The position numbers were made by a program, and so were the translations under genes. 64,000 nucleotides of DNA from NCBI GenBank assembly GCA_021811735.1, contig JAJZNK010000025.1, positions 4,718 to 68,717 on the forward strand, read 5' to 3'. The notes under the pieces were generated by a model. That model had not been told where the DNA came from and did no database searches. It worked only from the letters and a program-made list of their open reading frames with translations. Below are positions 7,277-61,944 of this stretch, piece after piece (position 1 is the first letter of the stretch; every line of letters starts with the position of its first letter). The DNA comes from Nanobdellota archaeon. GTDB taxonomy: Archaea; Nanobdellota; Nanobdellia; Parvarchaeales; Parvarchaeaceae.

Positions 7277-7662
7277 TGGAAGAATATAAATTTAGAGGAA
7301 AAAGCGTAGAAGAACTTAAGAAGATGTCAAATGAGGAGTTGGCAAAGATAGCAAATGCGGATTTTAGGAGGTCGATAAAACGAGGTTTTTCACCGGAAGA
7401 AAAGATCTTCTTAGCAAATTTAAAAAAGAAAATATCCAAATCAAAGTCTATCAAGACCCACATGAGGGAAATGTTCATATTGCCAGACTTCGTTGGACTG
7501 ACTATACATGTTCATAATGGGAAAGAGTTTGTACCTATAGAAATAAAACCTTCGATGGTGTTTCATAGACTTGGGGAGTTTGCGTTGACGACAAAACAAG
7601 TAAAGCACGGTTCTCCAGGTATGAAAGCAACACGTTCAAGCGGATTCGTTCCTATTAAGTAG
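7276..7662 (+). CDS. rps19: 30S ribosomal protein uS19
   Basis: [42 protein letters not shown] matches the uS19 core. GTG start overlaps the L2 stop by 1 nt. Confidence 0.9.
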
Positions 7663-7665
7663 ATT

Positions 7666-8331
7666 ATGGCAGAAAAAACTAAAACTAAAAGCAAGGATGT
7701 TCCTGTAGCAGAGAATACAAAAGAGAAGGCGGTTAAAACACTTACAAGAGTGCAGTCCAAAAGGGAGAGCATGCAGATATCATTGAAACATACTCATGAA
7801 ATAATGGAAGCAGTCAAGGGAAAGGATGTCACAAAGGCTGTGAATTTCCTCAAAAAAGTGCTTTTGAAAGAGGCATATATACCCTTCAGGAAATTTCCAA
7901 GTAAGGGACATAAACATGGCGTTCCTGCCGGGTTCCCTAAAAAGGCGACAAAGCAGGTAATCTCCATATTAGAGGAAATGAAAAGTAACGCTAAAAACAT
8001 GGGTTTTGATGAATCAAAGATAGTCGTAAGTGGTTACGCTTTAGGTAGAGGGGGTTACCCTAGATTTTCCAGTGGTTCTATTTATAGACATGGTAAAAGG
8101 ACAAATCTTACAGTATACTCCTTTGTAAATCAGGAAAGAAAGATAGTTCAGAAGAAAGTAGAGAAAGTGGAAGCAAAGGGAGAAAAACCAACTGATACAG
8201 CCGTTTCTGTTGAAAATGAAAAGAAAGACACAAAACATGAAAATTCAACAGTCGAGGAGACAGTTCAAGATAACAAAAAACAAGAAAACAATAAAAGCAA
8301 CGAGAACAATGAGTTAAAGGCGGAGAAATGA
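7666..8331 (+). CDS. rpl22: 50S ribosomal protein uL22 with a long K/E/N-rich C-terminal tail
   Basis: uL22 core (SLKHTHEIMEAVKGKDVTKAVNFLKKVLLKEAYIPFRKF) in conserved operon position. About 65 extra low-complexity residues at the C-terminus. Confidence 0.85.
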   Translation: MAEKTKTKSKDVPVAENTKEKAVKTLTRVQSKRESMQISLKHTHEIMEAVKGKDVTKAVNFLKKVLLKEAYIPFRKFPSKGHKHGVPAGFPKKATKQVISILEEMKSNAKNMGFDESKIVVSGYALGRGGYPRFSSGSIYRHGKRTNLTVYSFVNQERKIVQKKVEKVEAKGEKPTDTAVSVENEKKDTKHENSTVEETVQDNKKQENNKSNENNELKAEK

Positions 8332-17967: not shown

Positions 17968-18039
17968 AGCCTCCGACGGGTGCTGGCCCCGCGACCTTCT
18001 GCTTACAAGGCAGACGCTCTACCGCTGAGCTACGGAGGC
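17968..18039 (-). tRNA. tRNA-Thr (anticodon UGU) with non-canonical T-loop
   Basis: Hand fold: GCCUCCG UA GCUC-AGCGGUA-GAGC G UCUGC-CUUGUAA-GCAGA AGGUC GCGGG-GCCAGCA-CCCGU CGGAGGC U. All stems pair. No encoded CCA. Confidence 0.8.
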
Positions 18040-21856: not shown

Positions 21857-23569
21857 ATGAAATCACCAATATGCGCATTTTTAGGACATGTCGACGCAGG
21901 TAAAACCAGTATAATGGATGCTATAAGGTACACGATGTCTGCGTATAAGGAAAGTGGCGGGCTCACTCAGAATATAGGAATCACTGAAATTCCGACTAAC
22001 CGGATAAACGAGATAGCAGAGGACTTACTTAAGAAATTTAGCATAGATATAAAGGTTCCAAGTATAATTTTTATCGACTCACCAGGTCACGAAGCTTTCG
22101 TCACACTGAGGGAGAGAGGAGCTTCGATAGCAGATATAGTCATTCTTACCGTTGACGTAACCGAAGGAATACAAAACCAAACGATAGAATCGATAGAGAT
22201 ACTCAAGTCATACAAGACTCCCTTCATCGTCGCATTGACGAAGATAGACAATATAAGGGGTTTTTATAAGGTTTCAAAATCCTCGTTTTTGGACTTTATT
22301 TCAAAGCAAGGGAGTGATTATTCGCAAATGCTTGATGAAAAAACATACAAGCTCATAACCGATTTGTCATTGTATAATTTCCAGGCAGAAAGATACGATA
22401 GGATAAAAGATTTCACAAAAGAAGTTGCAATAGTTCCACTGTCTGCTGTAAATGGAATAGGGATAAAAGACCTTATAGTCATGCTTATTGGGCTGAGTCA
22501 AAAATACTTGGAACTTAGCAAGCAAGAGGGAAGCAGTGCCGCTATCCTAGAGGAGAAGAACGTCAAAGGGCTGGGAAAGGTGTATGATGCAATAGTTTAT
22601 TCTGGTAAGTTGAAAACAGGAGATGCCGTTATAGTAAACACTGCCGAAGGGCCTTTGGAAAACAAAATTAAAGGGATAATGCGTCTCGCACCACTTGAGG
22701 AAAGCAGGGAGAACTTCGGAAAGTACGAGAGCCTGCAGGAGGTAGAGGCGACAACTCCAATAAGACTGACATTACAGGAGCCTAATGCAATGATAGGTAC
22801 ATCAATAAACGTTTTTTCATCTGAGGAAGAAAAACAGAATTTATTGAACAGAATGAAAGAAGACACGAGTTACAATAACGATAAGAGTAAGGGATTAGTA
22901 ATCTGTGCAGATTCTTTAGGTAGTATCGACGCGATAAGAAACATAGCGCAGTCTTCGAATATTCTTATCGGTAAAACCAAGGTGGGAGAACCGTCTAAAA
23001 ACGATATCACAACTGCAAGTGTCAACGGTGGTGTGATCCTATGTTTCAATGTTCCTGTTTCAAAACAGACAGAAACCATAGCAGACGATTATTCTGTCAA
23101 GATTATAAGCTCCAAGTCGATTTATACTCTTTTTGATCTTTACGGCCAGTTCCAGCGCGAGTTTAAGAGCATGGATCTGGAAAAGAGAAAGGAAAGACTG
23201 AGACTCCCTTCAAAATTCATATTCTTAAAAGGAAACATATTCAGGAGGTCCGGGCCCTGCGTTTTTGGCATCGAAGTAATAGCCGGAGAGATACGACCGA
23301 ATTATCCTGTTATAAATTCCAAAGGAGAAAGGGTGGGCAGGATAATAGACATACAATCTGACAAGTCAAAACTTTCAAGCGCTGTAAAAGGGGATAAAAT
23401 TGCAATAAGCATCGACAACGCCGTTTACGGAAGAAATCTGTTTGAGGGGGACGTTCTTTACACCGATATCGAACTACCGGACATAATAAAGTTCGATGAT
23501 CTTTCAGCAGACTTGTCAGAAGATTATACTGAGGCTATTTCAGAGACTAGAAAAATAAAAAGACTTTAG
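21857..23569 (+). CDS. infB: translation initiation factor aIF5B (IF-2 family GTPase)
   Basis: PICAFLGHVDAGKTSIMDAIR, DSPGHEAF and TKID motifs. 570 aa. Confidence 0.9.
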   Translation: MKSPICAFLGHVDAGKTSIMDAIRYTMSAYKESGGLTQNIGITEIPTNRINEIAEDLLKKFSIDIKVPSIIFIDSPGHEAFVTLRERGASIADIVILTVDVTEGIQNQTIESIEILKSYKTPFIVALTKIDNIRGFYKVSKSSFLDFISKQGSDYSQMLDEKTYKLITDLSLYNFQAERYDRIKDFTKEVAIVPLSAVNGIGIKDLIVMLIGLSQKYLELSKQEGSSAAILEEKNVKGLGKVYDAIVYSGKLKTGDAVIVNTAEGPLENKIKGIMRLAPLEESRENFGKYESLQEVEATTPIRLTLQEPNAMIGTSINVFSSEEEKQNLLNRMKEDTSYNNDKSKGLVICADSLGSIDAIRNIAQSSNILIGKTKVGEPSKNDITTASVNGGVILCFNVPVSKQTETIADDYSVKIISSKSIYTLFDLYGQFQREFKSMDLEKRKERLRLPSKFIFLKGNIFRRSGPCVFGIEVIAGEIRPNYPVINSKGERVGRIIDIQSDKSKLSSAVKGDKIAISIDNAVYGRNLFEGDVLYTDIELPDIIKFDDLSADLSEDYTEAISETRKIKRL

Positions 23570-24387
23570 GGCCAGTTTTTTATGGCCGTTTCGTAAAGAT
23601 CCATACTGTCGCATGGCAGCCATTTTCCAGAGTATATAAATCCGTTTATTACTTTTTTCTCTGCAACTTGCTCAAAAATTCTAGAAATATTTGATTCTCC
23701 TTGTGGAAGTAAACTAAGAAAAGAAGGGTTTATAACGTATATACCTGCATTTACAAGATGAGATACCTGCTCTGTTTTCGGTTTTTCTATGAATTTTACA
23801 ATCTTGTTTCCCTCCATTTCGACAACCCCAAACTGGGAGATATCGTCTCGTGGCACGAGAGCTAAGGTTACAAGTGGCTTTTCTTTCTTATGAAACTCAT
23901 ATATTTTATTAAGATCAAAGTCAAACAGGTTGTCACCATTTAACACTAAAAAATCGTCATGAAACAAATTTTGGTTCTTTTTTATTGCTCCTCCAGTTCC
24001 CAGAGGACTTGTTTCTTCAGAGTATCTTATCCTTACTCCGAATTTACTGCCATCTCCAAAGTATTCATGTATTTTGCTTCCAAGGTATCCAACAGATATG
24101 ATTATATCCAGAAAATCTGCTTTTTTCAGCTGTTCAATTATATGTTCAAGAATCGGCCTACCGTTCACAGGCATCATGGGTTTGGGCATCTCATAAGTAA
24201 GCGGTCTTAGTCTGGTTCCAGATCCTCCTGCGAGTATAAATGCAATCTTACTTTTGACAGGTTCAAAGTGTTCCTTTATTATTCTTTCTATTGCTATCGA
24301 TCTATTTGGAATATTTATCCCATCTACAGTTTTGTCTATTTTCTCAAGGGTTTTTCTGTTTATGGTTATTGTTACCCTATCTTTCAT
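23566..24387 (-). CDS. sugar-1-phosphate nucleotidyltransferase with N-terminal ribbon-helix-helix-like domain (paralog 1)
   Basis: N-terminal MKDRVTITINRKTLEKIDKTVDGINIPNRSIAIERIIKEHF (beta strand plus two helices), then AFILAGGSGTRLRPLTYEMPKPMMPV (NTP-transferase G-loop). Its stop codon overlaps the infB stop. Confidence 0.75.
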   Translation of the reverse strand: MKDRVTITINRKTLEKIDKTVDGINIPNRSIAIERIIKEHFEPVKSKIAFILAGGSGTRLRPLTYEMPKPMMPVNGRPILEHIIEQLKKADFLDIIISVGYLGSKIHEYFGDGSKFGVRIRYSEETSPLGTGGAIKKNQNLFHDDFLVLNGDNLFDFDLNKIYEFHKKEKPLVTLALVPRDDISQFGVVEMEGNKIVKFIEKPKTEQVSHLVNAGIYVINPSFLSLLPQGESNISRIFEQVAEKKVINGFIYSGKWLPCDSMDLYETAIKNWP

Positions 24388-24585: not shown

Positions 24586-25404
24586 TTAAGGCCAGTTTTT
24601 TATGGCTTTCTCATATAAGTTCATGTTGTCGCATGGCAGCCATTTCCCAGAGTATATGAATCCATCTATGACTTTCTCGTCCACGACCTGCTCAAATATT
24701 TTTGATATATTTGATTCTCCCTGTGGCAAGAAACTCAGAAACGCTGGATTTAAGACGTACACTCCAGCATTTACCAAATGTGAGACTTGTTTAGTCTTTG
24801 GCTTTTCTATGAATCTTACTATTTTGTTTCCTTCCATCTCTACGACGCCGAACTGCGATACATCATCTTGTGAGACCAGAGCAATGGTGGCAAGTGGTTT
24901 GTTCTTTCTGTGGAATTCATATATCTTATTCAAGTTAAAGTCGAAAAGGTTGTCTCCGTTCACGACTATGAAATCGTCATGAAACAAATTTTGGCTCTTT
25001 TTTATCGCACCACCAGTATCCAACAGGCTAGTATCAGAGTATCTTATCCTTACTCCGAATTTACTGCCATCTCCAAAGTATTCATGTATTTTGCTTCCAA
25101 GGTATCCAACAGATATGATTATATCCAGAAAATCTGCTTTTTTCAGCTGTTCAATTATATGTTCAAGAATCGGCCTACCGTTCACAGGCATCATGGGTTT
25201 GGGTATCTCATAGGTAAATGGCCTTAGTCTGGTTCCAGATCCTCCTGCGAGTATAAATGCAATCTTACTTTTGACAGGTTCAAAGTGTTCCTTTACTATC
25301 TCCTCTATTGCTATGGATCGGTTAGGTACATTTACTCCATCAATAATCTTGTCTATTTTTTCTAGGGTTTTTTTGTTGATAGTTATGGTAATTTTATCTT
25401 TCAT
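24586..25404 (-). CDS. sugar-1-phosphate nucleotidyltransferase with N-terminal ribbon-helix-helix-like domain (paralog 2)
   Basis: Same architecture as 23566-24387. 272 aa. LAGGSGTRLRPFTYEIPKPMMPV. Confidence 0.75.
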   Translation of the reverse strand: MKDKITITINKKTLEKIDKIIDGVNVPNRSIAIEEIVKEHFEPVKSKIAFILAGGSGTRLRPFTYEIPKPMMPVNGRPILEHIIEQLKKADFLDIIISVGYLGSKIHEYFGDGSKFGVRIRYSDTSLLDTGGAIKKSQNLFHDDFIVVNGDNLFDFNLNKIYEFHRKNKPLATIALVSQDDVSQFGVVEMEGNKIVRFIEKPKTKQVSHLVNAGVYVLNPAFLSFLPQGESNISKIFEQVVDEKVIDGFIYSGKWLPCDNMNLYEKAIKNWP

Positions 25405-26621: not shown

Positions 26622-27317
26622 ATGTCAATAAAAAAGGCACAATATTCAACCGAATATGTGATAGTCGTTGGCATCGGCATTGCAATAATAGCGTCCTTCT
26701 TAGTATATGCAATGCTTTTCTACGGTTCGTTTGCCTCAAGCTCCTCTGCCAATCAAATGATAACTATTGCAAATTCCCTTGCAAAAGAAGCCAACTATGT
26801 CGCTTTTCAAGGAGAGGGCTCAGTTCAGACTTTTCCTATAACTATACCTTTATTAGACCCACGACATTCGTTTTTCTGCGGTAATATAATAAAGCTACAG
26901 ACCTCCGCACAACTTGGAATTGCACAATCTGCAGAAAATATATCGGGTATGTTGCCTTTATCAAGTGGTTCATACACAGCATTTGTAAAGGCAACAAGCA
27001 ATCAGGTAATAGTAGGTTTAAGATTCGCAATTTCCTTGATAGAACAGTCATATAGTATTTCTTCTAATACTCTTTACTATTCACTTTCATTTTTTAATTA
27101 TTCCGATAAACCTGTGATAACTACCCAGTCCTTCAATATTAGCCTTTTTTCGACTAGTGGTGAGTATATAACTAGCGCAACTAGTTCTACGCCAGCCTCG
27201 TCTCCGAGCCAGATATCAGGAAGCCTGACATTGCCATCTTCTCCCACGGCAGAATATGTTGTAGAGATTTATCCATCAAATTCTGGTGATTATTCCTCAA
27301 CATGCATAAATACATGA
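26622..27317 (+). CDS. type IV pilin-like protein (class III signal peptide)
   Basis: MSIKKAQ-YSTEYVIVVGIGIAIIASFLVYAML: basic leader, A-Q, then a hydrophobic helix. The mature part is S/T-rich with 2 Cys. Confidence 0.6.
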   Translation: MSIKKAQYSTEYVIVVGIGIAIIASFLVYAMLFYGSFASSSSANQMITIANSLAKEANYVAFQGEGSVQTFPITIPLLDPRHSFFCGNIIKLQTSAQLGIAQSAENISGMLPLSSGSYTAFVKATSNQVIVGLRFAISLIEQSYSISSNTLYYSLSFFNYSDKPVITTQSFNISLFSTSGEYITSATSSTPASSPSQISGSLTLPSSPTAEYVVEIYPSNSGDYSSTCINT

Positions 27318-31970: not shown

Positions 31971-33056
31971 TTACTCCTCCTTTTTCATATATTTATCCTT
32001 TACTTCTTTATCTGCCTGTTTTAATAAATCTTTATCAATTACTGGCCTGGCTTCTCCTTTCTTTTCTCTTAACTTGTCAATTATGTCCATTATCTTTTTA
32101 ACCAGCTCCTTTGAATCCTTCAGTTTTTTATCGAAGTCAGCGCCTGTTATCTGCTTGGTTTCTCCATGGTCTATCTTTTTGAACCATTTCACTATTTCAT
32201 CAACTTTTTCAACGTCATCATGCGATAGTACCTTCTCCTTTTGCACTGCAATCTCTTCCAAGTCCTTAGCGACTTGTTTTGGCACCGGAGGCAGATATCC
32301 ATATTCCATGAGAAGGGCCTGTCCAGCGGCTACAACTGCATTATAAAGATCCAGGCTTAGTTTAGTGCTCAATACATTTTCTGCAAGCATCAAAAGCCCT
32401 TCGGCATTCTCTATGTTGTTGTTTATAGATTCCATGGTTGGTATTATGTTCCCTGTCTTGTAAAGCATTTGAATAGGGACAAAGAAACCAGTATCATATA
32501 CAGCAACGCCATCTCTTAGAAGCGTTAATATTACTGGGTTAGGTTTTATTATAGATCCCCAAAATTCAGATAGTGGGTAAGCTTGTGCATGTATCTTGTC
32601 TGAGAAGTCTCTTGCTATCTCAGCCATCTTAGCAAAAAGCCTGTCACGCAGTTGATCAAGTGTGAATTTTTGTATATCAGTGTCATCTACTATGAACGCA
32701 ATGTCAATATCAGATGTACTAGTCATCCCTGTTTTTGTCTTCGAGCTTCCAAATATTACTATGGATTTTATGTATCTTCTAAAGAGGCTTAACACTCTTA
32801 AGAAATAGGCCCTTATCGAATTAGCATCTTTTGAAGGAAGCACCTTATTGAGTATATCAAAGGAAAGGCCTGCAAGCTGTCCAGGGGGTTCGACAGATTC
32901 CGCAGTTTCGCCCTCTCCGACTTCCAGTCCTATGAAAGAACCCATATAGTCAACTCGTTCATTGAGTTCGTCTATTTTTGAGGACAGAGCGTCAATTGTC
33001 GAAAACAGTTTGTTCAGCGTCGCTTCTATTGGATTTACATTTTCAGTCTGATGCAT
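31971..33056 (-). CDS. nucleotidyltransferase (Pol-beta/MNT-type) fused to a HEPN-like helical domain
   Basis: IVIFGSSKTKTGMTSTSDIDIAFIV matches GS-x(n)-D-x-D, followed by an all-helical region. ATG 33056 is preceded by GGAGGT (33061-33066); the track's TTG 33077 is rejected. Its stop is 1 nt from the rpl35ae start. Confidence 0.6.
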   Translation of the reverse strand: MHQTENVNPIEATLNKLFSTIDALSSKIDELNERVDYMGSFIGLEVGEGETAESVEPPGQLAGLSFDILNKVLPSKDANSIRAYFLRVLSLFRRYIKSIVIFGSSKTKTGMTSTSDIDIAFIVDDTDIQKFTLDQLRDRLFAKMAEIARDFSDKIHAQAYPLSEFWGSIIKPNPVILTLLRDGVAVYDTGFFVPIQMLYKTGNIIPTMESINNNIENAEGLLMLAENVLSTKLSLDLYNAVVAAGQALLMEYGYLPPVPKQVAKDLEEIAVQKEKVLSHDDVEKVDEIVKWFKKIDHGETKQITGADFDKKLKDSKELVKKIMDIIDKLREKKGEARPVIDKDLLKQADKEVKDKYMKKEE

Positions 33057-33154: not shown

Positions 33155-33164
33155 ATATTTAAAT
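33155..33164 (+). promoter_or_regulatory. putative TATA box for the orphan 577-aa gene / micro-ORF operon
   Basis: atatttaaat begins 31 nt upstream of ATG 33186. Confidence 0.35.
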
Positions 33165-33185: not shown

Positions 33186-34919
33186 ATGAACATATCTAGG
33201 ATTAAGGAACTGGCAAACAGTTTCGATTCGCCGAAGATGTCTGCAGACGAGATAAATGATTATATATACGAACTCGAGGCTAGGGGGTCAAGTGCCGAGT
33301 CGCATTATTCTGGAGACCTTGATTTTAGGTATAAAAACTCTGAAGAATTAATAGATCCAGGTTTTATAGGAAATCCCTCAGGGTATCACCTCACGAAGGA
33401 CATCACGAAAAGATACCATTTCCAGACCGAGTACTTCTCCGTTACGCAGATACTCAGCATGCTAGGGTACAAAAACCTAAGGATTGCCGAGTCAGTCGAT
33501 CCGTCTTCGCTTTCCGGCCTGATGAATATGGTCTTCGAGAAGAAGAAAAATCTGGAAGACAGGATCATGCAGCTTCTTGGGAGCATAAATACAGTACTCA
33601 AATCCATAATAGCAATAACATACGAGCTTAAGGAGCTAGATAGAAATCTATATTTTTACGATGAGCTAAAGGACCGTGACAAGGAAAAGGCCGAAGCCGC
33701 GGAGCTGGCGTTAAAAAGAGTATTCCTTGATAACGTAGACGCAAGGAAGGGAGGAGCAAGTCTTTCTGCCCTTTCAAGATCTCCAACACAGGGTCAGGGT
33801 GGGCCAGGGTTTATAGACATAATGTCAGTATTCTACCAAGTAAAGAGTCTAAAGGAAGTGTCTCAGCTGGACAGAAACGAGCAGTATAAAAGCATACTTA
33901 AGAATAGGTATGTGGAGTATGAAAAATGGAAAGAAATAAACGGCAAAGATCTTAGAAGCAGGAAGGGCATGCTTTTGCAGTATCTGAAAAGTCAGATGGG
34001 TTCCTTTGATCTTTACGTTGACTGGTGCTCCACCTATCTTTCACTGCTTTCCAAAATGGGTTTAAATACGGCTAAAAGTGCGTCGGAATACATGAAAGGA
34101 AGCTCCAAGCCAGACATATTCGAGAATGAGTTGTTTTCAGTTTCAGTAGTCAGTTCCAAGCCAGTGTACGCAAAGGAATACGACGTTGAGTACACGCGAC
34201 TTTTCAAAAATAAAGGGCCTGAAATTCCAATATCAGTGGAACCTAAAAGCATAGTAGGTGATTTGCTTACAAGAGGTTATAAAGAGCATAGAAGGTCCTA
34301 CATATACAATAGGCTTAAAAAATATGGCCCGCTGGCATTTTCAGTAATCAAATTCACGATGGATTTCAAGGAAAAGCCAAGCAAGGAAGCGGCACAGCCG
34401 CCATACGAGGGAACTTTTTCTTTGCATATCTACCCATACAGCTTTACACCTGAAGAATTTTACCTCTATAAACGGGCTAACACAGCCAAGATACAGAAAA
34501 CTGTTTTTGCTGCCGTTAATCAATCGGTTTTCAATTCGCTTAGCATAATAAAAGAGGATCTTGACAAATACATTCTAGAGGCTGAAAAGGAAGAAGCCGC
34601 AAAGAAAAAGCCAAATAAACCTCAAAAAGAGTTTGCAATCTTTGACATCTATCGTGCGTTTAAGGATGACTTTACGGGCGTTTCTAAATCATTTTCCACT
34701 TTTTCCCAAGGCACTTCACAAAACAAGAGCGTATTCAGCGAAAAAGATGCGGAGTTGTACGAGATGCTTCTGAATTCCAAATTGTTTATGCGTCCAAGGA
34801 TTAAGACTATATTAGAGACAGGACTGTTTATATCAAATGAGGATGTCATGCATATATACGATGAGCTTAAGAACAGGACTGGACAGCTAAACTGGAAACC
34901 GCCATTTTCCGTTAACTAA
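33186..34919 (+). CDS. orphan 577-aa soluble protein, no recognisable family
   Basis: Long uninterrupted ORF with no TM segment. Coiled-coil-like stretch KNLEDRIMQLLGSINTVLKSIIAITYELKELDRNLYFYDELKDRDKEKAEAAELALKR. The first 45 codons of the track's ORF (from 33051) lie in the divergent promoter region. Confidence 0.6.
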   Translation: MNISRIKELANSFDSPKMSADEINDYIYELEARGSSAESHYSGDLDFRYKNSEELIDPGFIGNPSGYHLTKDITKRYHFQTEYFSVTQILSMLGYKNLRIAESVDPSSLSGLMNMVFEKKKNLEDRIMQLLGSINTVLKSIIAITYELKELDRNLYFYDELKDRDKEKAEAAELALKRVFLDNVDARKGGASLSALSRSPTQGQGGPGFIDIMSVFYQVKSLKEVSQLDRNEQYKSILKNRYVEYEKWKEINGKDLRSRKGMLLQYLKSQMGSFDLYVDWCSTYLSLLSKMGLNTAKSASEYMKGSSKPDIFENELFSVSVVSSKPVYAKEYDVEYTRLFKNKGPEIPISVEPKSIVGDLLTRGYKEHRRSYIYNRLKKYGPLAFSVIKFTMDFKEKPSKEAAQPPYEGTFSLHIYPYSFTPEEFYLYKRANTAKIQKTVFAAVNQSVFNSLSIIKEDLDKYILEAEKEEAAKKKPNKPQKEFAIFDIYRAFKDDFTGVSKSFSTFSQGTSQNKSVFSEKDAELYEMLLNSKLFMRPRIKTILETGLFISNEDVMHIYDELKNRTGQLNWKPPFSVN

Positions 34920-34921
34920 AT

Positions 34922-35095
34922 ATGAACAACAAAGGACAGATGCCAATCACCGAGATAATAGCTATAATATTGGCAATACTTGTGCTTTTCGCAGGGATAG
35001 TAATTGCCATAATATTCACAGGAGCAAGCGCAACAATCGGAAAGGACATAACCAACGTTTTTTCGTTCAACTGGCTTTATGGAAAGGGGATATGA
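34922..35095 (+). CDS. micro-ORF A, 57 aa, pilin-like N-terminus plus single TM
   Basis: Hand translation: MNNKGQMPITEIIAIILAILVLFAGIVIAIIFTGASATIGKDITNVFSFNWLYGKGI. Starts 2 nt after the 577-aa ORF stop. Absent from the track (<60 aa). Confidence 0.5.
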   Translation: MNNKGQMPITEIIAIILAILVLFAGIVIAIIFTGASATIGKDITNVFSFNWLYGKGI

Positions 35096-35265
35096 CGAAA
35101 AAGGGGGTCGTAAGTGGCATGTTTTTGTACATAATCTTGATAATAGTAGGAGTGCTGCTCGTAATTATTTTCCTTCAGCTATTTACCCCCTATAAATTTA
35201 CCGGTCTTTTCAAAGATTTCGTGTCAAGATCGACCAGCATTAATGTCAGTGGTGGGTATACTTAA
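35092..35265 (+). CDS. micro-ORF B, 57 aa, basic N-terminus plus single TM
   Basis: MTKKGVVSGMFLYIILIIVGVLLVIIFLQLFTPYKFTGLFKDFVSRSTSINVSGGYT. ATGA overlap with micro-ORF A. Confidence 0.5.
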   Translation: MTKKGVVSGMFLYIILIIVGVLLVIIFLQLFTPYKFTGLFKDFVSRSTSINVSGGYT

Positions 35266-35266
35266 T

Positions 35267-35407
35267 ATGAATAATAAGGGAGTAGAGAGCTATATCCTTC
35301 TTATAATAATAACCCTTATAGTGTTGATACTTCTAATAATCTTTTATCTTTATTTATTTTCGCCTACAATGTTACATAGGCTAATACCCACAGTCCCAAA
35401 CATATAA
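35267..35407 (+). CDS. micro-ORF C, 46 aa, basic N-terminus plus single TM
   Basis: MNNKGVESYILLIIITLIVLILLIIFYLYLFSPTMLHRLIPTVPNI. Starts 1 nt after the stop of B. Confidence 0.5.
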   Translation: MNNKGVESYILLIIITLIVLILLIIFYLYLFSPTMLHRLIPTVPNI

Positions 35408-35408
35408 C

Positions 35409-35570
35409 ATGGAAGCGATATGGTTTTACGTAATAGCTGTAATCCTTGGTATAACCCTTATAATAGTATATATGCTCTTTGCGGGACCTTCTGTAATCTC
35501 TAAAGATATTTCAGGCTTTTTTGCGGGGATAGGGTCGTCGATAATGTCCGGATTTAAAAACGCCTATTAA
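35409..35570 (+). CDS. micro-ORF D, 53 aa, single TM
   Basis: MEAIWFYVIAVILGITLIIVYMLFAGPSVISKDISGFFAGIGSSIMSGFKNAY. Starts 1 nt after the stop of C. Its stop overlaps the next ATG (TAATG). Confidence 0.45.
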   Translation: MEAIWFYVIAVILGITLIIVYMLFAGPSVISKDISGFFAGIGSSIMSGFKNAY

Positions 35571-36175
35571 TGTTTTTATACTTCAATAGGCTAATAGGAA
35601 TTATGATCACTTATAGCGAGTTTCTAAGAATAAGAAGACAGGAGCAAGAGGACAGCAGGACACTCGCCAAGTTAACTGACGATATCCTGGAAGAAATGAA
35701 GGAGTATATCGCCATAAACAAGAATTCGCTCGATGAGGCCAGAAAAATCGTCGATGAAAAAAGAATCGATGAAATATCCACACAAATAAAGAACGCAGTT
35801 TCCACGCTTGAACAGATAATGAATCTAAGGATGCTTAAGATAGCTTCGATGGCCATACTCGATGTTGACACGGAGCAGGCTAAGATGAATATGCTCTCAA
35901 AGGAGATAATCCTTTTTGATAATCTATTAAAACTTTCCAAAGAACATAAATCTGCAATAATAAACGAGTTAAAGTCGGTAGAGCCTAAAAAGCTGCAGAA
36001 AGTGGAAGAAGACAGTAATGGCGAGAAAATAGTGATTAAAGTCATTTCGGACATACCTAAATTTGTATGGAGAAATGACAAATCTTATGGGCCTTTCACG
36101 TTTCCAAACGTGATAGAGATAGACAAGGACGTTGCGGAGATACTCATCAAGAGCGGAAAGGCAGAGAGCGCATAA
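35570..36175 (+). CDS. GINS subunit (Gins51/Gins15-like) replication factor
   Basis: Helical A-domain beginning ITYSEFLRIRRQEQEDSRTLAKL. The C-terminal B-domain pattern IVIKVISDIPKFVWRNDKSYGPFTFPNVIEIDKDVAEILIKSGKAE resembles archaeal Gins51. Alternative start ATG 35603. Confidence 0.55.
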   Translation: MFLYFNRLIGIMITYSEFLRIRRQEQEDSRTLAKLTDDILEEMKEYIAINKNSLDEARKIVDEKRIDEISTQIKNAVSTLEQIMNLRMLKIASMAILDVDTEQAKMNMLSKEIILFDNLLKLSKEHKSAIINELKSVEPKKLQKVEEDSNGEKIVIKVISDIPKFVWRNDKSYGPFTFPNVIEIDKDVAEILIKSGKAESA

Positions 36176-37702
36176 ATGACATTCTTCAGGGAAAAGATAG
36201 AGGAAAGAGAGTATCAAGAAAAAATATTCGATGCTTGCAAGGCTGGTAACACCTTAGTGGTTCTTCCAACAGGATTGGGTAAAACAATAATAAGTGCGAT
36301 GCTTGTAGATCACAGGCTTCAAAAATACCCTAACTCCAGGGCGCTTTTTCTGGCGCCGACTAAACCCCTACTAAATCAGCACATGAGGACATTCTCCGAA
36401 CTTATGAACTTAAAACTCGGCATAGCGAGCGGATCCGTTTCTGGCAAGGAAAGGGAGAAATTATATTCTGAATCTCAGCTAGTATTTGCAACACCTCAGA
36501 CAATCGGAAATGACATGGAAAAAGGCAGGATAGACTTTTCTAATTTTAGCTTGCTAATAGTAGACGAAGCGCATCATACCGTAGGCAACTATTCTTATGT
36601 GAAGATCGCAAAGGAATACCTGCAGGCAAGTGTTCATCCACTTATACTCGGGTTGACGGCCTCCCCTGCCTCCGAGCGTGAAAAGATTAGGACAATATGC
36701 AGCAATCTTCAGATAACAAATGTGGAGATAAGATCGGAGGAAGACAGTGACGTCATACCATATATAAAGAGGAAGGAAGTAGAAGAAGTAAAAGTCGATC
36801 TTTCAAGCGATCTGATAGATCTGGCGAACCGAGTCAAAATAATGATAAAGGATTCTATAATCGAACTGCAGAGTGCCGGGTTACTTAAGAACACAATGCA
36901 GAGCAAGATTAACCGTGTTACCATACTACTCCTTCAGAAAAGTTTACAGAGACAGATGTTCAGTGGCAAGAGGTCATTCTATCTTATACGCGGTATAATA
37001 CTGACATCGAAACTGCTAAAACTTTATCATGCATATAATCTGGTAGCTACTCAGAGTCTATCAGCTTTCTTTAATTTTCTGCTAAAGATAGAATCCGGAA
37101 AGGCAAAAACAGATAAGGAACTCGCATCCGATCCCAAGTTCATCTATTTAAGAGAGCGTGCCGAAGAGCTGCTAAATAACGGCGTAGAGCATCCTAAGCT
37201 TGAGAAACTTGTCTATCTTCTTGGTAGTTATTTTTCAGAGGATAAGAAGGCAATAATATTCGCGCAGTACCGGGATACGGTCGATGCAATTTACAGCCGC
37301 ATACGTGTTTTAAATGGAGTCAGACCCGTAAAATTCATAGGCCAAGGTAAGGGGGGGTTGTCGCAGAAGGAACAAATAAGTATAATAAAAGATTTTGAGG
37401 AGGGGGTGTACAACGTTCTTGTCTCTACAAGCGTAAGTGAGGAGGGGATGTCGATAAAAGGAGTAGACATCGCGGTCTTCTATGAGACTATTCCAAGCGC
37501 AATAAGAAACATACAGAGAAGAGGAAGAGTGGGCAGGTTTGCAGCAGGAAGGATATTCATACTCATAACCAGCGGCACGAACGACGAGGGGTATTATTGG
37601 CTTTCGAAGAGGAGAGAAAAGAGCATGAAAAGAATAATAAAGAACATAAAGGAAAATCCGGAAACGATAAGGCAGGATGGAACTTTAAAACCTTTTGCTT
37701 AA
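36176..37702 (+). CDS. hef: Hef/FANCM-family superfamily-2 helicase (helicase domains only, no ERCC4 nuclease domain)
   Basis: REYQEKIF, LPTGLGKT, IVDEAHH, LGLTASP and QRRGRVGR motifs. ATG directly follows the GINS stop. Confidence 0.8.
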   Translation: MTFFREKIEEREYQEKIFDACKAGNTLVVLPTGLGKTIISAMLVDHRLQKYPNSRALFLAPTKPLLNQHMRTFSELMNLKLGIASGSVSGKEREKLYSESQLVFATPQTIGNDMEKGRIDFSNFSLLIVDEAHHTVGNYSYVKIAKEYLQASVHPLILGLTASPASEREKIRTICSNLQITNVEIRSEEDSDVIPYIKRKEVEEVKVDLSSDLIDLANRVKIMIKDSIIELQSAGLLKNTMQSKINRVTILLLQKSLQRQMFSGKRSFYLIRGIILTSKLLKLYHAYNLVATQSLSAFFNFLLKIESGKAKTDKELASDPKFIYLRERAEELLNNGVEHPKLEKLVYLLGSYFSEDKKAIIFAQYRDTVDAIYSRIRVLNGVRPVKFIGQGKGGLSQKEQISIIKDFEEGVYNVLVSTSVSEEGMSIKGVDIAVFYETIPSAIRNIQRRGRVGRFAAGRIFILITSGTNDEGYYWLSKRREKSMKRIIKNIKENPETIRQDGTLKPFA

Positions 37703-38172
37703 GTAGAAAATATCTCAGATTCGCACGTTCCTCCAGCAGTATAGACTATTCCATCTATTGAAACTTTGCTTCCGGAAGTGTTGCCCAAGACTATCGTGTT
37801 TATAGTCGTGTCTAAAATTTTAACAGTTTTCGAGAATGAGTTCACGCCCACAGAATAGTTCCCCACTGGCTCCACCTCAGATGGGTCAGCGCCGTTTACA
37901 TTATTCATATATACTTTGTACAGAAGTCCGGGTGTTCCCTCATATACAGATACCTTAAACGTATTAGGATTCGCGGTTGTGCTGATGTTGGTCACATTTA
38001 CGGTGCATGGAGAGGGTGTGCCGTTTCCCGACGATATAACTCCAGATGGTAGTAATGAAAAGTGAAAAACGGAACTTGCTATTGCTAATCCTAGTATGAG
38101 AAACGATATAAAAAGTATTATCTTTATAAAATACTCTACCTCACTCGCACCCTTTATTTTGTTACTGCGCAT
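37699..38172 (-). CDS. type IV pilin-like protein (last gene of five-gene operon)
   Basis: MRSNKIKGA-SEVEYFIKIILFISFLILGLAIA class III-like signal. Beta-rich S/T/N/G mature part, 2 Cys. Confidence 0.6.
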   Translation of the reverse strand: MRSNKIKGASEVEYFIKIILFISFLILGLAIASSVFHFSLLPSGVISSGNGTPSPCTVNVTNISTTANPNTFKVSVYEGTPGLLYKVYMNNVNGADPSEVEPVGNYSVGVNSFSKTVKILDTTINTIVLGNTSGSKVSIDGIVYTAGGTCESEIFST

Positions 38173-39626
38173 ATGTACACCAGGTTTCTCCCTAGAAAGT
38201 TCGGTTTCGTCAATCCAATCTCCTGTGGCAACGAACTAAAGAAATAGTAAAGAGATTGACCGCACTGTTCCAAGCCAGTGGTATAAAGGGATGTATAAAG
38301 TAGCTTTCCAGTGTAAGTATATGCATTTGGTGCTATTTTATTTTTACAAAACGTATTGTTCACACAGTTGGCGTATGCAAATCCGGTAAGAGCCGCTCCC
38401 ACTATAAGTCCGGGGTTGGAGGGTGAAAGCATTTTTGCAGTTACCCCAGATATTACTGCTCTGCTGCATTCATATTGTATCCCTGACGTCGGGTAATTGT
38501 TAAGGAATGTCGCTGGCTGGCATTCGCTTGGAAGAGAGATAGTGTTAGGGGCAAATCGCGTCCCAACAAGAGAATTCAGGTAGACTATGTACAGCTGCGC
38601 ATTGTTTATCAATTTGCTACTGTTAGGATTTACAAAACTGCTCTGGCTCGAGTTACTAAGATTCTTGTAGCTGAAAATGAGGTTGTCACCAGGCTTAAGG
38701 TAAGATGCGTACGATTGATTTATTACAGACGTGCTTTTCACAGGTTCGGTCAGTGTGCACGATGGTGGAGCTTCGTAAGATTTCGTAATACTGTCATATC
38801 CAACCGTGCAGTTATTTCCGCTACAGAAATTCGTGTAAAGATCTGTACATACTGCAGTGTTCCCAGTGGAATTCGAGCACGTATTCAATACTGGGTTGAA
38901 TGAGCAGCCTTGCGAGGATTCGCACAAGTAGTTTGTAAGATTTGCCTCAGCGGTAGGCTGTCCGTTTCCGTAAAGCGGGATATATCTTTTACTATAGTCT
39001 GTGCTGAAAGAATAGCCCTGTGAACTGCTGCATTTGAAATAATTAGATGATTGGGCTTCACATAAGTTTGGACTGCTTAAATCGCAGGTAAACCCATTCG
39101 GGTTACTGTTGGAAAGCGGATTTGAACATGATTGGGCAGCAGTGTGATTGAGACAGCTTATCTGTAAAGTGTAAGCATTCGTTTCCAGATATTGGGTCAG
39201 ATTGTTTATGGTAAGTTTTTGGTTGGTGTTTATGTCAACGACACCGCATGTTGCAGGTCCATTTTGCAACACGGTAAGCCCTTGATTAGCCCCATATTGG
39301 TTCCAGCATGAAGTAAGCTGTGTCGCAGTGCCAGAAAATACCTGAGAAGCGGTGGATCCCGGCCCATACGCGCTGGTGGAAGTAGTGCATCCGAATAAAG
39401 GAGGTGCTATACCGATACTGTTCAATGTACTGCTTAGGCAGAAAAACTGCGAAACACATAATCCATTATAATAAAAATTTGTAAACTCTGAGCTAACATA
39501 GCATAATCCACTGTTCGAGAGATTTACACCAACTAGAAGGAGGTAACCAGCGACAGCTACTATTACTATTATGAATATGACTCCTAAGATTATAAATATG
39601 AAGCCTTCTCCGGGCGTTTCTGCCAT
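38154..39626 (-). CDS. large Cys-rich secreted/pilin-like protein, unknown family
   Basis: MAETPGEG-FIFIILGVIFIIVIVAVAGYLLL N-terminal helix. 490 aa, about 24 Cys and at least 10 N-x-S/T sequons by hand count. Confidence 0.55.
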   Translation of the reverse strand: MAETPGEGFIFIILGVIFIIVIVAVAGYLLLVGVNLSNSGLCYVSSEFTNFYYNGLCVSQFFCLSSTLNSIGIAPPLFGCTTSTSAYGPGSTASQVFSGTATQLTSCWNQYGANQGLTVLQNGPATCGVVDINTNQKLTINNLTQYLETNAYTLQISCLNHTAAQSCSNPLSNSNPNGFTCDLSSPNLCEAQSSNYFKCSSSQGYSFSTDYSKRYIPLYGNGQPTAEANLTNYLCESSQGCSFNPVLNTCSNSTGNTAVCTDLYTNFCSGNNCTVGYDSITKSYEAPPSCTLTEPVKSTSVINQSYASYLKPGDNLIFSYKNLSNSSQSSFVNPNSSKLINNAQLYIVYLNSLVGTRFAPNTISLPSECQPATFLNNYPTSGIQYECSRAVISGVTAKMLSPSNPGLIVGAALTGFAYANCVNNTFCKNKIAPNAYTYTGKLLYTSLYTTGLEQCGQSLYYFFSSLPQEIGLTKPNFLGRNLVYICAVTK

Positions 39627-39668
39627 AGTTAATTACTGCGTTTATAAAATAAATACAGTGCTTAATGC

Positions 39669-40559
39669 CTACGCTTGAGGTATACAGATAAAAACCCTGC
39701 TTTGGCTGTAAACCATGTAATTACTTAGTGTCCCACAGAGTGGCACGAAATAATTACAACCTGAGCTTTCAGTTAGTATGTTTTGGGAAGGGTTTCCGTT
39801 GCTTAAGGAGCTTACGGTCTCCGTCGTCTGGTTTGCTGTCTGGTTTGAATAGTCGCAGACAGCAGGATTATTTATCAGTGGCTGATCGTAAGTAGAAGTA
39901 TATCTGCACTGGTTTTGGAAACTTATCTGACAGTTTGCTATCCCTCCACTTGGATATCCGAAATAGGTTACAACGTAGCTGCCGTTCAATAACTTGTCAG
40001 AGGGAGATATATATTGTGCGTTACCGTTGCTCCCGTTCGTTATAAACACTATTTGCAATGGATAACTCCCTGCGTAATTATTGTCAGTGTAGTTTATAAT
40101 CGAAAGATAGTTAATGTTTTTGTTCGGATTTATTATCGAGCCCTTATAACAGTTGAACATCTGGTTTAAGTTTTTAGCAGATATCACCTGCGAGCCTGTC
40201 ACGGCGTTTCCTCCAGAGAACAGGCTAAAGCACGACGAAGCCTGAGTGTAAAACTGGCTGGCGAAGCTGTAGGCGGATTTTTCATTGATATTCGCAGACT
40301 GCAGACAGTTCCTCTGTACTTGTGCAGACTGGGTTGGGCTGATTAAAACGTTCGAAAAACCTAAAAAGTACGTAGCCGATGTGAACGGCGAAAGAAAAGT
40401 GTTTACTATTTTATACTGCGTGAATGACGTAAAGCAACTTAGTCCGAAACTCAGCGTCCCAAATGATGTTATAACCGAAAATGAAACCACAGATAGCACT
40501 ATTCCGGCTATTACGACAAGGATGACAAAGACAATGGTTAAAAGTATTCCCTCTTCCAT
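39669..40559 (-). CDS. Cys-rich secreted/pilin-like protein, unknown family
   Basis: MEEG-ILLTIVFVILVVIAGIVLSVV N-terminal helix. 296 aa, 10 Cys, N/S/T-rich. Confidence 0.5.
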   Translation of the reverse strand: MEEGILLTIVFVILVVIAGIVLSVVSFSVITSFGTLSFGLSCFTSFTQYKIVNTFLSPFTSATYFLGFSNVLISPTQSAQVQRNCLQSANINEKSAYSFASQFYTQASSCFSLFSGGNAVTGSQVISAKNLNQMFNCYKGSIINPNKNINYLSIINYTDNNYAGSYPLQIVFITNGSNGNAQYISPSDKLLNGSYVVTYFGYPSGGIANCQISFQNQCRYTSTYDQPLINNPAVCDYSNQTANQTTETVSSLSNGNPSQNILTESSGCNYFVPLCGTLSNYMVYSQSRVFICIPQA

Positions 40560-40717
40560 TATGACCCTCCTAAAAGATTACCGAAATAGGAAAAGGGAGA
40601 ACTGCTGTGCGCAGAGGTATAGAAAAGCATGACTACTATGGATATCGCAACGAGTGCGGTTATTATCACGAGTACTATCCATATCAGTCTCCATTCAACG
40701 CTTGCTTTTCTGTTCAT
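40559..40717 (-). CDS. 52-aa pilin-like micro-ORF (absent from track)
   Basis: Hand translation: MNRKASVEWRLIWIVLVIITALVAISIVVMLFYTSAHSSSPFSYFGNLLGGS. Starts 1 nt after the upstream stop; its TAA overlaps the next ATG. Confidence 0.45.
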   Translation of the reverse strand: MNRKASVEWRLIWIVLVIITALVAISIVVMLFYTSAHSSSPFSYFGNLLGGS

Positions 40718-42159: not shown

Positions 42160-42206
42160 AATCTTTAATAAATCCCGAGAAATATAAGTATAACTTTGGG
42201 TAATCA

Positions 42207-42278
42207 AGCCTTGGGTGGGTTTCGAACCCACAACCTCCTGCTTACGAAGCAGATGCTCTGCCGTTGAGCTACCAAGGC
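42207..42278 (-). tRNA. tRNA-Thr (anticodon CGU)
   Basis: Hand fold: GCCUUGG UA GCUC-AACGGCA-GAGC A UCUGC-UUCGUAA-GCAGG AGGUU GUGGG-UUCGAAA-CCCAC CCAAGGC U. Canonical cloverleaf. Confidence 0.9.
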
Positions 42279-42279
42279 C

Positions 42280-50221: not shown

Positions 50222-50686
50222 ATGATGAAAGGACAGTCAGCATTAGAGTACATGATGACCTATGGTTGGGCAATCCTGATTATAGTCATCGTAGCTGTAA
50301 TCCTGTACTCCATGGGCATTTTTAACCCAGGAGCAAGCATAACCACAGCAAGTAGCGGGTTCAGTCCGTTCGCAGTAAGCGCGGCGGTTTGTAACACGAG
50401 CGGGTTATATGTGGCTTTTACAACGGGAGGTTTGCCGAATGGAGCTAGCAGTGCCAGTGCACTTAGCCTTACAGTCTCTGCTGGGACGGGTATAGGTAGC
50501 GGTAGCGGTGGTCCATATGCGGGCCCAGTTTCTCCTGGAACCACTTTTACTATAAAAGCTACCTCAACTTGCGCAACGTCTGGTGTTAGGTTCTCTACAT
50601 CCGGTACTTTAAGTTACAGTGTAACTACTGCCGTGGGAACTACAACAAATAATGCTACAGGTACAATAGCAGGAACAAGCAGCTAA
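50222..50686 (+). CDS. type IV pilin-like protein (candidate major pilin)
   Basis: MMKGQ-SALEYMMTYGWAILIIVIVAVILYSMGIF. The N-terminal module is nearly identical to that of 27400-28623. Small G/S/T/A-rich mature domain, 2 Cys. Confidence 0.7.
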   Translation: MMKGQSALEYMMTYGWAILIIVIVAVILYSMGIFNPGASITTASSGFSPFAVSAAVCNTSGLYVAFTTGGLPNGASSASALSLTVSAGTGIGSGSGGPYAGPVSPGTTFTIKATSTCATSGVRFSTSGTLSYSVTTAVGTTTNNATGTIAGTSS

Positions 50687-61856: not shown

Positions 61857-61944
61857 TGCCCCGACCGGGATTTGAACCCGGGTTTCTGCCTGTCTTCCAA
61901 AAAGGTCGAAAGGGCAATGTCCTTGGCCGCTAGACTATCGGGGC
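61857..61944 (-). tRNA. tRNA-Glu (anticodon UUC) with 15-nt intron at canonical 37/38 position
   Basis: Hand fold: GCCCCGA UA GUCU-AGCGGCCAA-GGAC A UUGCC-CUUUCG[ACCUUUUUGGAAGAC]A-GGCAG AAAC CCGGG-UUCAAAU-CCCGG UCGGGGC A. Intron is at 61892-61906. Confidence 0.85.

Follow-up and report, generated by a model that had tools for sequence, protein, structure and literature searches.

A 64,000-nt stretch of DNA from a Nanobdellota archaeon of the Parvarchaeaceae (GenBank assembly GCA_021811735.1, contig JAJZNK010000025.1, positions 4,718 to 68,717 of the forward strand; this whole stretch is hereafter the window) contains a gene for a 577-residue protein with no recognised motif, here called c0. 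It is followed at once by four very small open reading frames (ORFs), here called micro-ORFs A to D, and then by genes for a GINS protein and a Hef-type helicase. What are these four micro-ORFs, and do they belong with the large protein encoded upstream? An initial annotation of the locus had taken them for a translationally coupled set of minimal pilin-like or single-pass membrane peptides tied to a large soluble orphan. We propose instead that the locus consists of two unrelated things that adjoin only in this lineage, a pilin-like micro-ORF cluster and a DPANN-wide protein, and we assign this reading a probability of roughly 0.55. The micro-ORFs themselves would be minimal subunits with class III (prepilin) signals in a surface-protein cluster specific to the Parvarchaeales, an assignment that we make with moderate confidence. 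The genes of the locus are as follows, with a downward arrow (↓) marking the predicted processing site here and below.

33186-34919, + strand: large protein c0, 577 aa, start ATG 33186
34922-35095, + strand: micro-ORF A, 57 aa; leader MNNKG, then QMPITE, then a hydrophobic domain
35092-35265, + strand: micro-ORF B, 57 aa; leader MTKKG, then a hydrophobic domain; LFTPYKF motif
35267-35407, + strand: micro-ORF C, 46 aa; leader MNNKG, then a hydrophobic domain; LFSP motif
35409-35570, + strand: micro-ORF D, 53 aa; N-terminus MEA↓IWFY
35603-36175, + strand: Gins51-like protein; Gins51_C match of 30.2 bits; the mechanical ORF runs from 35570
36176-37702, + strand: Hef-type helicase, 508 aa; DEAD, ResIII and Helicase_C domains

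Micro-ORFs A to D and their N-termini

The large ORF and A to D all lie where the initial annotation had placed them, and the junctions are likewise as first described, with a 2-nt gap between c0 and A, an ATGA overlap between A and B, and 1-nt gaps at B/C and C/D. Since gaps and overlaps of 1-4 nt are widespread across the window and tight junctions are normal in this compact genome, the locus is not singled out by them. The four micro-ORFs were missing from the list of ORFs on which the initial annotation was based, as had been remarked, but this reflects only the 60-aa length cut-off of that list. Three independent public sources of gene calls for the identical contig (GCA_021832485.1) contain all of them, with lengths of 57, 57, 46 and 53 aa.

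Conservation of the micro-ORFs in related genomes, which had been suggested as a check, was borne out. A-B-C-D follow c0 in the same order in 21 of 27 related Parvarchaeales loci, with sequence and length retained (54-58 aa for A, 53-59 for B, 46-51 for C and 53-62 for D), and this conservation persists where the identity of the flanking c0 falls to 44%. Codon comparisons of A, C and D with correctly aligned close relatives gave proportions of synonymous differences (pS) of 0.41-0.84, with synonymous sites largely saturated, and proportions of nonsynonymous differences (pN) of 0.06-0.17. Equal-length comparisons within family B proved to be out of register, and this family was left out of the analysis. 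The ARMAN-5 genome has an annotated orthologue of A, BJBARM5_0302. On these comparisons A to D are real genes, and A, C and D are under purifying selection. A profile search with family A reached the Parvarchaeales only.

Each of the four proteins has one strongly hydrophobic segment, with a top 19-residue Kyte-Doolittle mean of 2.7-3.6. They also appear to be related to one another and to a fifth micro-ORF, c20, which is encoded further downstream on the opposite strand. Profile alignments with hhalign among B, C and D scored 46-48 over 40-47 columns, while the pairs A-D and A-c20 scored 34-36; among 20 reversed-sequence controls the top score was 31.6, over 25 columns. The alignments were read by score margin only, reversed sequences reaching a "probability" of 91%. 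By that margin A to D and c20 are paralogues. Outside the hydrophobic segment, the tail of A has a conserved SF(S/N)WL(Y/F)G and that of B a conserved N-x-S sequon.

Class III signals of archaea consist of a short charged leader and a processing site ahead of a hydrophobic domain. The residue at -1 is G, A or S and that at -2 is charged, while an acidic residue at +5 is found in some cases only. The leaders of A to D are 3-12 residues long, mostly 3-6, and an uncharged stretch of 16-29 residues begins within the next 0-7 residues. Typically the leader closes with a charged residue and a Gly or Ala, and the hydrophobic domain behind it spans 21-29 residues. A [KRDE][GAS] site ahead of the hydrophobic domain is present in 21 of 21 unique sequences of A, 20 of 24 of B, 23 of 24 of C and 20 of 22 of D, so that 84 of 91 have the expected residues at -1 and -2; the exceptions are four B, one C and two D sequences. 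In Rehaiarchaeum the leaders are reduced to MKG, MRG and MKA, and the peptidase PibD is known to cleave leaders as short as 3-4 residues. These N-termini fit the layout of an archaeal class III signal, and the description of the micro-ORFs as tightly packed, single-helix, pilin-like proteins has thus gained support. The predicted mature proteins would have 41-52 residues, that is, a helix and a short tail of 15-25 residues.

The sites differ in detail among the families. Family A has K/R-G/A↓Q(E)-M-P-I/V-T/S-E, in which the Glu is at +6. The placement of this Glu at +5 in the initial annotation holds if A is cut after KGQ, but not at the canonical site after Gly. The EppA-type (DUF361) motif with Gln at +1 and Glu at +5 (QxSxExxxL) is found in none of A to D, and B, C and D have no Gln at +1. 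The D proteins of the window's clade begin with MEA↓IWFY where their relatives carry ...NKKGVTEA↓TIFY. Either the E[GAS] directly before the hydrophobic domain would be the true site in D, or the leader has been shed.

Two further proteins in the window have the N-terminus of a canonical archaeal pilin, KA↓QYSTEY at 26622-27317 (+) and KG↓QSALEYMMTYGWA at 50222-50686 (+), and neither matched a Pfam family at E up to 0.01. Given these two N-termini, a prepilin peptidase is expected in this genome.

The proposed surface-protein cluster and its gene order

Beyond Hef, on the opposite strand and spanning 37699-40717, the window has a run of four genes in the order c20-c8-c12-c16:

40559-40717, - strand: fifth micro-ORF c20, 52 aa, first gene of the run; MNRKA↓SVEWRLIWIV...
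39669-40559, - strand: c8, 296 aa; N-terminal hydrophobic domain (MEEG↓ILLTIVF); 10 Cys; 5 sequons
38154-39626, - strand: c12, 490 aa; N-terminal hydrophobic domain; 24 Cys; 11 N-glycosylation sequons
37699-38172, - strand: c16, pilin-like, 157 aa; N-terminus MRSNKIKG↓ASEVEY, then a hydrophobic domain

The proteins c8, c12 and c16 all begin with a hydrophobic domain and have no Pfam match, and a search with c12 found homologues in Parvarchaeales only. The gene for c20 is kept in loci L085, L029, L013 and L016. It is unannotated in the public calls on the identical contig, which leave a 159-nt gap at its place. Genes of fewer than 60 codons in these genomes are thus real, and one of them (40559-40717) is still missed.

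In Rehaiarchaeum fermentans the two groups form a single co-directional and tightly packed series, c20(48)-c8(307)-c12(496)-c16(137)-A-B-C-D-GINS-Hef (protein lengths in brackets). Moreover, wherever A to D were found in a Parvarchaeales genome, A to D, GINS and Hef lie side by side on one strand (34922-37702 in the window; 7001-9677 in L085). The placement directly upstream of GINS and Hef, which the initial annotation had considered odd, is therefore genuine and conserved. Genes for surface micro-proteins and for replication and repair share one apparent operon. One detail of this junction probably does not hold. In every relative the GINS protein begins with MITYSEF, whose counterpart in the window is ATG 35603, 33 nt after D, so the mechanical ORF is probably 11 codons too long. 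The TAATG overlap with D that had been reported would then probably have arisen from extending the ORF too far upstream. The called genes of Rehaiarchaeum (D at 7469-7642, GINS at 7639-8178) do share 4 nt.

We propose that A to D and c20 would insert into the membrane, that a PibD-type prepilin peptidase would remove their leaders, and that the resulting helix-only subunits would pack via their hydrophobic domains. They may then act as minor or core pilin-like subunits of a pilus or of a short, pseudopilus-like stalk, and in this capacity could carry or anchor the larger, Cys- and sequon-rich c8, c12 and c16 on the cell surface.

Several observations weigh against this proposal. Scans of A to D against Pfam and NCBIfam gave no match at E up to 1, to pilin and class III families or to any other; the canonical pilins of the window go undetected by these libraries as well. 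The four exceptional B sequences (of 24) have no charge at -2, and the two exceptional D sequences (MEEVW...) have no G/A/S site. The cleavage site is moreover ambiguous, since it could be [KR][GA] or an E[GAS] directly before the hydrophobic domain. No characterised archaeal pilin is as short as the predicted mature proteins, whose 41-52 residues could not accommodate a globular head. An ordinary single-pass membrane protein with its N-terminus inside would also have a short, charged leader and one transmembrane (TM) helix. Among the 49 window ORFs scanned there is no prepilin peptidase (Peptidase_A24), no PilB/FlaI ATPase (T2SSE) and no PilC/TadC protein (T2SSF), and no pilus machinery gene lies next to the micro-ORF cluster in any locus examined. 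One published study found pilin genes in all Parvarchaeales genomes and the other structural genes in some. Finally, the 2-nt gap between c0 and A makes co-transcription likely, and hence some co-regulation of two parts of the locus that we hold to be unrelated.

Much of this would be accounted for if A to D and c20 were unprocessed single-pass membrane proteins (N-terminus in, C-terminus out) that serve in a membrane-embedded complex with c8, c12 and c16, or in a different complex, as accessory or anchoring subunits, with neither prepilin cleavage nor a filament. This explanation draws on the generic layout of a charged N-terminus and one TM helix, on the missing pilus machinery in the window and beside the cluster, on the lack of a match to any pilin hidden Markov model, on the B and D sequences without a proper -2/-1 site and on tails too short for a pilin head domain. 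Two features argue the other way. A Gly or Ala right after the charged residue is kept throughout the five paralogous families, in some 90 unique sequences, which the positive-inside rule alone would not demand, and the D proteins of one clade begin with MEA or MES exactly where their relatives have ...VTEA↓. We regard unprocessed membrane proteins as the less likely explanation, and favor pilin-like subunits.

The large protein c0 and its partners

The large protein had been called an orphan, which it is not. An indexed search returned 141 homologues, including proteins of Pacearchaeota, Woesearchaeota and Nanoarchaeota. Those from Parvarchaeota are full-length and 43-74% identical, and those from Pacearchaeota, Woesearchaeota and other Nanoarchaeota have 450-560 aa and 22-35% identity. 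A scan of one genome per species of the Genome Taxonomy Database (GTDB) placed relatives in 481 genomes (Nanoarchaeota), and in an exhaustive profile search the family matched 840 clusters at 50% identity, of which 318 had E-values under 1e-30. Support for the start at ATG 33186 comes from full-length homologues of 571-588 aa. By sequence similarity, then, c0 is a member of a family of about 500 aa that is found across the DPANN archaea and the Nanoarchaeota and has no known function.

The earlier statement that c0 has no recognised motif agrees with our results. Pfam and NCBIfam scans of c0 gave no match, a Pfam scan of 50 diverse family members gave no recurrent family, and the family profile had no match among PDB sequences at E up to 10. 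An AlphaFold2 model built with 100 family members has a predicted local distance difference test (pLDDT) score of 78.9 and a predicted TM-score (pTM) of 0.69, and consists of long helical hairpins and an antiparallel beta-sheet. AlphaFold and Foldseek runs, which had been suggested as a check, led to no credible match. With the full model, Foldseek found none in PDB or in the viral library BFVD (best PDB E = 0.04; TM-scores of 0.2 or less). A START/Bet v1-like lipid-binding domain had been suggested by weak matches in the first Foldseek list and was dropped; residues 296-478 modelled alone (pLDDT 73.9) gave no START match and nothing below E = 0.2. As first described, c0 has no predicted TM segment, its top 19-residue Kyte-Doolittle mean being 1.45, and in the explanation that we favor it would be a soluble, cytoplasmic protein.

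The neighbourhood of c0 was analysed by clustering the ORFs of 84 loci and the window. Two features of the window lie immediately upstream of c0:

31971-33056, - strand: c1, nucleotidyltransferase-like protein of the minimal nucleotidyltransferase (MNT) type, 361 aa in the public call; weak NTP_transf_2 and Polbeta matches
33155-33164, + strand: atatttaaat element read from the sequence, beginning 31 nt 5' of ATG 33186; a possible TATA box of c0

As in the window, c1 is divergent and upstream of c0 in 22 of 28 Parvarchaeales loci. It is also near c0 in 20 of 54 loci outside the Parvarchaeales, where it lies downstream. In 28 of these 54 loci c0 is followed by c2, a protein of about 630 aa with an AP_endonuc_2-type TIM-barrel domain (for example, L001 8406-10322 and L003 7936-9834); no copy of c2 was seen near c0 in Parvarchaeales. 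Divergently upstream of c0, Woesearchaeota and Pacearchaeota have a gene for a small coiled-coil protein. The c1 of Parvarchaeales is extended at its N-terminus by a coiled-coil segment of some 80 residues, which may match this separate gene. A small ORF with an N-terminal TM segment, by contrast, follows c0 in none of the 51 loci outside the Parvarchaeales (Woesearchaeal and Pacearchaeal) that have enough sequence downstream. From these gene orders, the conserved partners of c0 across the phylum are c1 and c2 and not the micro-ORFs. The large gene does not co-occur with three or four small TM ORFs across genomes, as it had been expected to if the two formed a set.

Even within the Parvarchaeales the two parts come apart. 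Rehaiarchaeum fermentans has no c0 within 7 kb of its micro-ORF run. In L029 the run c12-c16-A-B-C-D-GINS-Hef is intact and inverted relative to c0, which comes after c20-c8. In Acidifodinimicrobium an inverted Hef follows c0, and no micro-ORFs are within reach. Taken together, these layouts suggest that the stable unit is the pilin-like cluster with GINS and Hef, and that the junction of c0 and A is derived.

These data bear directly on the model of the initial annotation, in which c0 and the four peptides would work together as a single module, the peptides being its translationally coupled membrane partners. The 2-nt gap leaves no room for a separate promoter outside coding sequence, the adjacency of c0 and A is kept in 21 loci of the Parvarchaeum clade, and c0 is near parts of the cluster or Hef even in L029 and Acidifodinimicrobium. 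Yet c0 is present in 481 species, and in the loci sampled outside the Parvarchaeales it is never followed by such peptides. Within the order, c0 is missing from the Rehaiarchaeum locus, the peptides are missing from that of Acidifodinimicrobium, and in L029 the two lie in opposite orientation. The phylum-wide partners of c0 are c1 and c2. The module thus seems largely refuted by the comparative data, and we consider it very improbable. We propose that the position of c0 in front of A would be a derived rearrangement with no functional link, adding co-transcription at most. That the micro-ORFs are spurious, or are small hydrophobic toxins of toxin-antitoxin loci, as their shortness, hydrophobicity and lack of a database domain might suggest, is scarcely credible: strong purifying selection and an order and length fixed across an order-level clade refute the first, and a stable housekeeping synteny in place of a patchy mobile distribution, together with the absence of any Rfam match in the region, opposes the second.

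A lead to the c0 family comes from the published one-line description of cls.004340 (NEQ484), a cluster of the DPANN dark matter, which fits c0. The two are likened by description only, c0 being similarly largely helical and DPANN-restricted, with housekeeping surroundings and the nucleotidyltransferase-like neighbour c1. The published descriptions suit the neighbour c1 as well. A literature search for NEQ484 and NEQ050 turned up one 2019 table and nothing else. The family is widespread in DPANN, is well predicted by AlphaFold2 and has no domain or fold match, and it merits a study of its own. Such a study would do better to pair c0 with its nucleotidyltransferase-like and TIM-barrel neighbours than with the micro-ORF peptides.

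The remainder of the window is in keeping with its taxonomic source. It has 38.9% G+C and carries archaeal housekeeping genes (TFB, Trm1, L35Ae, Gins51-like, Hef-type helicase, SecD/F, SMC and aIF2). Its proteins are identical to those on contigs of the Parvarchaeota metagenome-assembled genome GCA_021832485.1 and 70-84% identical to those of other 'Candidatus Parvarchaeum'/ARMAN genomes. The source is a Parvarchaeum-like (ARMAN) DPANN archaeon. Neither Rfam nor ARAGORN found an RNA gene in the 33-41 kb region. The only tRNA that ARAGORN reports in the window is a tRNA-Thr at 42206-42279, and Rfam tRNAs at 17968-18039 (-; 58.6 bits) and 61857-61944 (-; 54.8 bits) are reported by Rfam alone; the latter, at 88 nt, may contain an intron. 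Tandem paralogous sugar-nucleotidyltransferases are encoded at 23566-24387 (-) and 24586-25404 (-), each with a weak N-terminal ribbon-helix-helix match.

Known small pilins and the contact with host cells

The initial annotation knew of no described system with this layout, which overstates the case. Archaeal pilins of only about 70 aa, present as several paralogues, have been described, as have clusters of divergent pilins in DPANN archaea. Among the closest known systems is the set of Epd pilins made by Methanococcus maripaludis. Its major pilin EpdE (MMP1685) is 6.4 kDa when mature, and EpdA to EpdD and EpdE are substrates of EppA with processing sites KGQI, KGQV and RAQI. Like A to D, the Epd pilins are very small, have several paralogues per genome and are encoded at a distance from the assembly machinery. 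Their KG↓Q and RA↓Q sites resemble the K/R-G/A↓Q-M of family A, and they too have an acidic residue a few positions into the mature protein. The differences are that A to D are shorter still in predicted mature form, that the Glu of family A is at +6 and not +5 and the DUF361 motif is unmatched, that there is no detectable sequence homology, and that the window contains no EppA/PibD gene.

BasABC of the bindosome assembly system of Sulfolobus solfataricus offer a functional parallel. No pilus is visible with these small pilin-like proteins, whose presumed role is to support the surface display of larger proteins with class III signals. This is the same logic as we propose for A to D and c20 with c8, c12 and c16. 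However, the bas genes adjoin those for an ATPase and a membrane platform (basEF), and the micro-ORF cluster has no such neighbours. The cargo of the bindosome consists of sugar-binding proteins, whereas here it would be Cys-rich proteins of unknown function.

Helix-only pilins of about 50 residues are also found in bacteria, namely the Flp (Tad) pilins with the motif G/xxxxEY. A to D match them in being helix-only and in their size, and the site of c16, KG↓ASEVEY, is G↓xxxxEY-like. A to D themselves do not have the G/xxxxEY motif and do not match the Flp family of Pfam at E up to 1. The Flp pilins moreover belong to another domain of life, and there is no Tad machinery in the window.

ARMAN/Parvarchaeota cells depend on a host and have been seen joined to Thermoplasmatales by pili-like fibres. 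If our reading of the micro-ORFs were carried to its full extent, the five proteins of about 50 residues would be the smallest archaeal pilins yet. They would form a helix-only filament or stalk that shows c8, c12 and c16 to the Thermoplasmatales hosts of acidophilic ARMAN-type DPANN cells, and the fixed position directly upstream of GINS and Hef would reflect co-regulation of such contact structures with replication. We consider this extended scenario improbable as a whole. Regardless, the five micro-pilin-like proteins and the three Cys-rich surface proteins, whose cluster is conserved and specific to the order, are a candidate for the contact apparatus, and one that can be targeted by proteomics or imaging.

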